From the IMG/VR virus record IMGVR_UViG_2698536618_000007: a DNA stretch of 6,207 bases, one strand, 5' to 3'. The stretch comes from a virus. Lineage: Duplodnaviria > Heunggongvirae > Uroviricota > Caudoviricetes. Shown one piece after another: positions 3,705-3,772 of the stretch; the stretch's first letter is position 1, and the number at the start of each line of letters is the position of its first letter. The position numbers and the translations under genes were made by a program. The notes under the pieces were generated by a model. The model did not search any database, had not been told where the DNA came from, and saw only the letters and a program-made list of their open reading frames with translations.

Positions 3705-3748
3705 AATTGCTCCTTTAGTTTGAATTGACTGTTAAGTTGATTGCTTAT

Positions 3749-3760
3749 TGTTAAAGAGCG
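3749..3760 (-). promoter_or_regulatory. boxA-like element (rrn/nut-type GCTCTTTAACAA) just downstream of the cro-like gene
   Basis: The minus-strand sequence reads CGCTCTTTAACAA, matching the boxA consensus (lambda nut boxA CGCTCTTA; rrn boxA TGCTCTTTAACAA). It sits 13 nt after the cro stop, the position of nutR in lambda. No obvious boxB hairpin follows. Confidence 0.35.
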
Positions 3761-3772
3761 TGAAATGGAAAT

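Follow-up and report, generated by a model that had tools for sequence, protein, structure and literature searches.

The boxA element is known so far as a helper of the lambda N protein, as an antitermination signal of the ribosomal RNA (rrn) operons, and as a stand-alone signal at clustered regularly interspaced short palindromic repeat (CRISPR) arrays and at suhB. In the nutR site of lambda, boxA (CGCTCTTA) begins 8 nucleotides (nt) past the cro stop codon and the boxB hairpin (GCCCTGAAAAAGGGC) comes next; rrn leaders are organized as boxB-boxA-boxC and involve NusB, NusE, NusA, NusG, SuhB and S4, with an upstream hairpin as boxB and a downstream GU-rich block as boxC (PMC10250234). A boxA alone, through Nus proteins (NusB, NusE, NusA, NusG, along with SuhB), prevents Rho-dependent termination of CRISPR arrays in Salmonella and many genera (PMC7665894); Nus factors also prevent Rho-dependent termination in reporter constructs, and a consensus boxA in the 5' untranslated region of suhB, no more than 50 nt from the start codon, brings about repression, by a translation block and then Rho termination (PMC5725501). 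HK022 (putL and putR) and HK639 (a putL-like RNA) are lambdoid phages without N, in which a two-stem-loop RNA just 3' of the leftward promoter pL acts in cis. Here we describe a boxA between cro and ydaT in a 6,207-nt stretch of viral DNA (Caudoviricetes; IMG/VR record IMGVR_UViG_2698536618_000007), hereafter the window; we class it as an rrn-type boxA that stands alone in the nutR slot of a lambdoid prophage without N, while the put slot at pL is taken by an RNA (R1) with no detectable likeness to put.

The element lies on the minus strand in the rightward (pR) operon, among these features:
4031..4066, minus strand: putative pR (TTGACT, 17 nt, TAATCT), read from the sequence; it did not pass a consensus scan.
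3773..4003, minus strand: cro, encoding a YdaS-family helix-turn-helix (HTH) protein of 76 amino acids (Pfam YdaS_toxin, 4e-17, and P22_Cro, 8e-5; PHROG 35, transcriptional repressor), labelled Cro in phage PhiR34_1.
3705..3772, minus strand: cro-ydaT spacer of 68 nt, the nutR-equivalent slot; untranslated, A/U/C-rich and hairpin-free, as judged from sequence and fold.
3748..3760, minus strand: boxA, CGCUCUUUAACAA in the pR transcript, a predicted NusB-NusE (S10) site, from an exact consensus match and alignment.
3165..3704, minus strand: ydaT, encoding a YdaT-family cII analogue of 179 amino acids (Pfam YdaT_toxin, 8.5e-30; PHROG 163, CII-like activator, 4e-67), the first gene past boxA.

Read along the minus strand, the cro stop codon TAA (3775..3773) is followed by 12 nt (ATTTCCATTTCA), the 13-mer CGCTCTTTAACAA (3760..3748), a further 43 nt and the ydaT ATG at 3704; boxA thus shares its strand with cro and ydaT and lies within the untranslated spacer of the transcript expected from the putative pR. 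An exact search finds the 13-mer at one place in the window and in none of 200 dinucleotide-preserving shuffles, and across 22 kb of prophage from int to Q it is the sole match to GYTCTTTAANA, the functional gamma-proteobacterial boxA consensus (PMC5725501). It matches both that consensus and the rrn form GCUCUUUAACAA exactly, and its 12-mer GCTCTTTAACAA is the same as the boxA of the Escherichia coli K-12 rrnB leader. The original prediction, made from these letters alone, had described an rrn-type boxA starting 13 nt past the cro stop and nearer to the rrn boxA than lambda's own; all of this holds, the first C being the 13th base and the 12-mer being identical to that of rrnB, as against CGCTCTTA in lambda. 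Its phrase "exactly where nutR boxA sits in lambda" is right as to the slot and approximate as to distance (12 nt here, 8 nt in lambda), and the range that it gave for the motif, 3705-3772, is that of the whole spacer in plus-strand numbering, boxA proper being 3748-3760 on the minus strand.

Like lambda nutR, the window boxA sits in untranslated RNA right after cro and before a cII-type gene on the pR transcript, and it contains the CGCUCUU core; it differs in that its rrn consensus is complete, where lambda has the shortened CGCUCUUA, and the window lacks a boxB hairpin, an N gene and a nutL. The 81-nt RNA from cro to ydaT contains no boxB-like stem-loop 3' of boxA (fold of -5.9 kcal/mol, z = -0.34), as had been predicted. 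The likeness to the rrn leader extends over the identical 12-nt boxA and the same following AU (AACAAU), with no phage factor needed at rrn and presumably none here; on the other hand, the upstream hairpin of rrnB and the GU-rich UGUGUGGG after its boxA are absent from the window, where the cro coding sequence lies upstream and no UGUGUGGG-like block lies downstream, and the RNA here is a translated, phage-borne mRNA. The CRISPR-array boxA is the best functional precedent for a boxA alone: it stands outside rrn operons and guards a long transcript from Rho through Nus factors, as the window boxA would, although the RNA protected there is untranslated, whereas that downstream of the window boxA is mostly coding and the activity of the window boxA is a predicted one.

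No N-like gene appears in the deposited annotations from int to Q, where QuuD (Q) is the sole antiterminator listed, and tblastn with lambda N, a relative's N-like protein and HK022 Nun as queries produced no match, either in the window or in six loci related to it, while the same run did detect the N-like gene of L269 (L numbers denote loci of the comparison). The first gene of the pL operon, at the place of lambda N, is kil (PHROG 294), so the predicted absence of N stands. Relatives that have an N-like gene (L089, L269) carry boxA with a hairpin in the post-cro slot, and L269 does so in its pL leader also. The plus strand of the window's pL leader holds no nutL, having no match to the 8-nt boxA core GCTCTTTA with one mismatch allowed. 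An arginine-rich TTG open reading frame (ORF) of 31 amino acids (RLRGVRGVKRTRERR; 5189-5284, plus strand), which lies inside R1 and was considered and rejected as a miniature N, is cut short at codon 6 in the Trabulsiella-type copy and lacks both a Shine-Dalgarno sequence (SD) and a PHROG match; it is probably not a gene. The same ORF is annotated as a coding sequence in phage IdasGreatGrand.

The leftward leader contains a different kind of element, and its features are:
5081..5108, plus strand: putative pL (TTGTTG, 16 nt, TATAAT) with AACAAC operator half-sites, from reading of the sequence and a repeat search.
5167..5270, plus strand: R1, a non-coding RNA of two hairpins, conserved and located in the putL slot of the pL leader, from conservation and an alignment fold.
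5309..5599, plus strand: kil, first gene of the pL operon (PHROG 294 Kil, 1.5e-37, and annotation; no Pfam family).

From about 5122 onward the pL leader is common to phages with other immunity regions, R1 being 95-100% conserved under at least four promoter/immunity types among E. coli prophages and 82-83% identical to its counterpart in Trabulsiella-type prophages. It is taken to be non-coding because a stop interrupts the embedded 31-amino-acid ORF at codon 6 in the Trabulsiella-type prophages. The RNAalifold consensus consists of two stem-loops side by side, on which 98.5% of cells pair, with three compensated pairs as against a shuffle mean of 0.5 (1 of 500 shuffles reached three); the single-sequence minimum-free-energy alternative shows no excess of compensations. 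Since a single diverged lineage accounts for every compensation, and since the folding energy does not surpass that of shuffles, the two-hairpin structure of R1 is only moderately supported.

An R1 covariance model finds exactly one copy per phage, none in a pR operon, and has no match in the HK022 or HK639 loci; a weak match in L115 appears within coding sequence, and a pattern match in L299 is unrelated high-GC sequence. Conversely, a put model built from four RNAs (HK022 putL and putR, HK639 and L252) recovers those, adds L260 (6e-27) and L263 (4e-16), and finds nothing in the window at E <= 10. A diverged put RNA is accordingly rejected for R1, the covariance models making no cross-match in either direction. 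Compared with Rfam at E <= 10, the whole window yielded chance matches only, mostly on the O-gene iterons, and R1 stayed unmatched. R1 is thus an analogue of put by position and cannot be recognized as one of its family; further antiterminator RNAs besides that of HK639 are reportedly described by King et al. in 2011 (J Bacteriol 193:5784), and R1 or an M3-like class may figure among them.

What R1 shares with put is its place. In the GenBank record of HK639, part of the pL leader is labelled "putL-like antiterminator RNA" and a stretch past cII "M3-like RNA"; the HK639 leader consists of a 5' leader A, the putL-like RNA and a 3' flank X. The Trabulsiella locus L085 has leader A, R1 and flank X; L252 and L260 have leader A, the putL-like RNA and a flank Y that holds a hairpin at the kil ribosome site; and the window has a 5' hairpin of its own, R1 and flank Y. 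In L090, L268, L256 and L284, leader A is followed by a boxA or near-boxA (TGCTTTTTAACAA, TGCTCATTAACAA, TGCTCTTTAACAA). R1 therefore lies between the same flanks as the RNAs of HK639, L252 and L260, and three apparently interchangeable cassettes (boxA, putL-like RNA and R1) share one slot just 3' of pL; two of them have a known link to antitermination, boxA as an established signal and the putL-like RNA as an annotated antiterminator of the put family. The positional evidence for an analogy of R1 with put is, on this comparison, stronger than the structural evidence. If R1 works like put, it acts in cis, and on pL only; a good intrinsic terminator further along the pL operon (L003 16335-16353) fits a put-like device on that operon.

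The boxA or near-boxA sequences of the pL leaders (TGCTCATTAACAA, TGCTCTTTAACAA, TGCTTTTTAACAA and TGCTTCTTTAACAA) stand about 70-80 nt past pL in L268, L256, L284, L090 and L261, in the slot of put and R1; no N-like ORF was found in L268, L256, L261 or L284 by eye or by tblastn. The M3-like RNA of HK639 is matched at 91% in the corresponding position of a Leclercia prophage (loci concerned: L131 13911-13970, plus strand, and L089 3062-3106) and is absent from the window, where ydaT overlaps O. No put or M3-like RNA copy was found in the pR operon.

The arrangement closest to that of the window occurs in L260 and L263. Neither has an N relative by tblastn, and for L260 the ORFs between cI and kil were inspected as well; each has the put-family RNA at pL and a consensus boxA directly after a YdaS-type cro, with no match to the put model after cro. 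HK022 has putR in the post-cro slot, so boxA in these loci, and likewise in the window, sits at the putR position. On sequence, the window seems to repeat the L260/L263 layout, with R1 replacing putL and with boxA lacking a hairpin.

The most economical reading is that boxA is a Nus loading site of the pR operon: the 13-mer, in the nutR slot of a lambdoid prophage that lacks N, would be a genuine boxA and would load host Nus factors on the pR transcript independently of N, to which we assign a probability of roughly 0.45. Emerging just after ribosomes leave cro, boxA RNA would most likely be bound by host NusB-S10 and would nucleate a host Nus complex (NusA, NusG, SuhB) on RNA polymerase; the modified polymerase would then be protected from Rho-dependent termination and polarity without N, as at rrn operons and CRISPR arrays, across ydaT, O, P, ren and the AT-rich morons that precede Q; the gap between ybcK and ybcL, for example, is 465 nt of untranslated sequence. 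On the pL transcript a different device would serve, the structured leader RNA R1 at the put position, with a presumed antiterminator activity. The comparison establishes the identity, strand and place of the motif, the lack of N and boxB, the conservation among diverged relatives and the exchange of cassettes at pL; binding of Nus factors, action against Rho and antitermination by R1 are inferred. A wider version of this reading, that widespread N-less YdaS/YdaT-immunity (pro)phages of the Enterobacteriaceae use interchangeable cis-acting RNA cassettes (a lone rrn-type boxA, a put RNA or R1) and that the window combines R1 at pL with boxA alone at pR, is possible, though the odds are clearly against it.

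Comparison with relatives supplies an argument for Nus loading. In an alignment of the window with five relatives, CGCTCTTTAACAAT is the sole invariant block of six diverged cro-ydaT spacers, which differ from one another in their flanks, in the hairpin loop and in how far away the start codon lies. When boxA was sought by pattern downstream of such cro genes, matches came from 45 viral contigs, in 32 distinct stretches, the majority being cro-boxA spacers and a few apparently chance; the five aligned relatives are among the cro-linked matches, and in these CGCTCTTTAACA stands 7-22 nt past the cro stop, with a hairpin next where inspected. The hairpin loop of the relatives is variable (GUAA, AUUA, UUCU) where no N was found, which argues against recognition of the N type. 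The invariance of CGCTCTTTAACAAT, together with the L260/L263 layout, favours N-independent Nus loading by a boxA-bearing arrangement like those of rrn operons and CRISPR arrays.

Several observations weigh against this. Within the window's own type, 121 copies of the spacer form five haplotypes, in all of which boxA is unchanged; the haplotypes differ by two substitutions and an indel close to the SD, by a C-to-A substitution 2 nt 5' of boxA and by a 12-nt duplication downstream, and because five events would leave boxA unaltered by chance in about 35% of cases, invariance within the type is uninformative. Relatives recovered through YdaT homologues, as loci from 43 species, have a boxA in only 3 of 43 spacers from diverse genomes: L089 and L092 have a consensus boxA with hairpins, L103 has a true lambda nutR, and in many others a GC hairpin is present without any boxA. 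Although clearly diverged from the window's Cro, those of L089 and L092 have the C-terminal motif RPDLPxLFPH in common with it. In phages 4A7, Perceval and HK639 the cro gene is a different one, and what comes after it is a GC hairpin, with boxA missing; 4A7 and Perceval otherwise have the same cII-O-P-ren-emrE operon and R1 at pL, and HK639 shares the YdaT-type cII with the window and has its putL-like RNA at pL. On the operon of 4A7 and Perceval, boxA is consequently not required, unless the GC hairpin does the same job.

The terminators on the path add to these difficulties. Complexes of the rrn type work mainly on Rho-dependent terminators and poorly suppress intrinsic ones. A simple scan found no strong intrinsic terminator on the pR path, and the one hairpin found there by folding is of the intrinsic type:
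681..721, minus strand: intrinsic-terminator-like hairpin after emrE (GGAGGCUC...GAGCCUC, then GUUUUAUGCUUUUUG), from its fold (z = -2.69).
It lies between pR and Q, has a U-tract, and was missed by the simple scan on account of its 12-nt loop (limit 8 nt).

The original prediction had suggested antitermination either by host Nus factors acting on boxA alone or by an antiterminator encoded elsewhere, and had proposed comparison with the nutR regions of related prophages; the comparison gives partial support to both halves. For boxA alone speak its invariance in six diverged spacers, the absence of putR from L260 and L263 and the boxA-like sequences in put slots, and against it the lack of boxA in 4A7, Perceval and HK639; for an antiterminator elsewhere speaks R1 in the putL slot, and against it the absence, by annotation from int to Q and by tblastn, of any protein antiterminator other than Q (quuD) and of an R1 copy in the pR operon.

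The GC-rich hairpin that is the other occupant of the nutR slot has the form GCCGC-UUAAC-GGCGGC or GCCGCC-UAAUCU-GCGGCG, with the cro stop codon in its loop. The loci concerned are L128 6620-6650 (minus strand), L131 13310-13335 (plus strand) and many of L085-L127, and the carriers are 4A7, Perceval, HK639 and many prophages without boxA.

A serious rival, and the alternative that survives best, though we consider it doubtful, is that boxA is a relic, the surviving half of an ancestral nut site of boxA and hairpin whose partner, N or another, was lost together with the hairpin, leaving no present function. In the alignment, CAGTCAATTCA of the window stands opposite the 5' arm and the loop of a CGGCTGA-N4-TCAGCC hairpin (GGCUGA-N4-UCAGCC in RNA) that the relatives have, which suggests decay or deletion of this hairpin in the window; descent from a form with a hairpin, since lost, would also fit a decaying nut site, and is a further point to be set against Nus loading. 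The absence of N, the sister phages that manage the same operon without boxA, and a diversity within the type that is too low to reveal selection agree with a relic. It is less easily reconciled with the intactness of all 13-14 bases while the adjacent hairpin and flanks diverged, with the recurrence of a lone boxA, or of boxA with a variable-loop hairpin, in several lineages where no N was found, or with retention of the element in 1517 of 5426 complete E. coli genomes.

Another serious rival, though we rate it as rather unlikely, is that boxA serves instead to repress ydaT: Nus factors at boxA, tethered to RNA polymerase, would block initiation of translation 44 nt on, perhaps with subsequent Rho termination inside ydaT, and would tune the choice between lysis and lysogeny as boxA does for suhB, and nutL with N for lambda N. 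The distances would permit this, boxA being about 27-30 nt from the ydaT SD and 44 nt from the ATG, inside the 50-nt window of Baniulyte et al. for regulatory boxA; the spacing to the SD is 6 nt in suhB as opposed to about 28 nt here, and repression of suhB survived inserts of 2-100 bp (PMC5725501). For E. coli 55989 and S88, the same authors list GCTCTTTAACA 3 nt 5' of cI/cII-type genes of prophages, in a table without comment; the supplementary list does not include the ydaT-linked boxA for the O157 strains that bear the region. Among relatives, however, the distance from boxA to the ATG varies from about 44 to about 76 nt, whereas boxA is always 7-22 nt past the cro stop, and N-dependent relatives use the same motif at the same place for antitermination. 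BoxA pairs with the ydaT SD in the minimum-free-energy fold, but the pairing is weak (-5.9 kcal/mol, z = -0.34) and, by our own reasoning, generic, since boxA resembles an anti-SD; a riboregulator based on it was rejected on these grounds.

A hidden N-like factor, that is, a phage protein outside the window or too diverged for recognition that would act with boxA and a non-canonical RNA site, is very unlikely. N proteins are small and extremely diverse, such that sequence searches can miss them, and the 31-amino-acid arginine-rich ORF lies in the pL leader; nevertheless the annotations from int to Q and the tblastn queries that succeeded with L269 gave no N, that ORF has the defects described above, and there is neither a hairpin near boxA nor a boxA in the pL leader. 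Equally improbable is a role at the DNA level, in which the conserved block would be an opposite-strand pRE-like establishment promoter or YdaT operator and its likeness to boxA coincidental: lambda pRE fires leftward from the cII 5' region across this area, TTGAAT, TTGACT and TTGATT motifs adjoin the block on the plus strand and CP-933P YdaT binds TTGATT-N6-AATCAA (PMC9986795), but a promoter scan reported no promoter-like site there, the neighbouring TTGATT-like motifs are unconserved in the alignment while the boxA block is conserved, and 12/12 identity to the rrn boxA is not expected of a promoter element, so that neither the scan nor conservation supports a pRE-like promoter.

Should Nus loading by boxA alone be correct, lambdoid phages would have taken over the rrn-type Nus machinery of the host without a phage protein, as a third solution beside N and the put RNAs. 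On the wider version of the reading, the window phage would be a natural case in which boxA only, independently of N, brings about processive antitermination of a phage mRNA operon, and R1 would be a new class of polymerase-modifying RNA. The exchange of cassettes at pL in itself nominates R1 as a candidate new RNA polymerase-modifying RNA and offers a comparative handle on the swapping of antitermination modules among mosaic phages. If boxA is a relic or controls translation of ydaT, the result is an ordinary one. The element is carried by inducible or plaque-forming phages (PhiR34_1, IdasGreatGrand) and is therefore easy to study.

The 6.2 kb of the window correspond to the early and immunity region of a lambdoid prophage of DLP12/Bievrevirus type. 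Its bases 126-6207 are 100% identical to the chromosome of E. coli O39:NM, in which the prophage is located at tRNA-Arg/intD and extends via ybcL, ybcM, ybcN, ninE, ybcO, rusA and ylcG to quuD; the same module is found in the sequenced phages PhiR34_1 (99.7%), IdasGreatGrand, PhiR47_2, PhiR5_1 and PhiR26_1, and the 171-nt cro-boxA stretch is the sequence counted above in about 28% of complete E. coli genomes. The minus-strand (rightward) operon runs cro, ydaT, O, P, ren and then the morons emrE, ylcJ and ybcK; the plus strand (leftward) carries cI, a terminator-like hairpin, the putative pL, a leader of about 200 nt, kil, gam and bet, and the pL transcript continues beyond bet to exo and onward to int. 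YdaT has been characterized as equivalent to CII (PMC9986795), and the ydaT stop overlaps the O start. An operator inverted repeat, ATGGTTGTT-N7-AACAACCAT, overlaps the putative pR. The remaining features are:
2149-3168, minus strand: O (Pfam Phage_rep_O).
1451-2152, minus strand: P (Pfam Phage_lambda_P).
1152-1454, minus strand: ren (PHROG 142).
4108..4797, plus strand: cI-type repressor with HTH and S24 peptidase domains (Pfam and annotation).
4919-4946, plus strand: terminator-like hairpin after cI (terminator scan).

The O gene holds five iterons of about 19-22 nt (TTTACCTGATTCGGGTAA) at 2611-2727, spaced 19-29 nt, presumably the replication origin. Between cI and pL, the position of lambda rexAB, the window has the terminator only; sister phages have differing cargo genes there (L002 5768-7196; L128 7747-9163; L129 7789-9339), labelled GevT/GevA and HipA in some PhiR phages. 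The -10 element of the putative pL (5103-5108) is TATAAT in the window and TATAGT in most other copies of the same immunity type, and the window may have a promoter-up variant. A 15-bp hairpin (5120-5168, plus strand; UUCAUCGCAAC...GUUGCGAUGA) begins about 5 nt past the putative pL start; some immunity types, that of L144 among them, have another sequence instead of its 5' arm, which places it outside the conserved core. The start of kil at 5309 is that of the longest ORF, PGAP calling 5393-5599. A further hairpin, UAGUCGCUUC-AAC-GAGGCGGCUUA (5272-5308, plus strand), covers a GAGG just 5' of the ATG at 5309 and likewise precedes kil in HK225, L252 and L260; it may serve translational control of kil or, with the PGAP start at 5393, of a short upstream ORF.

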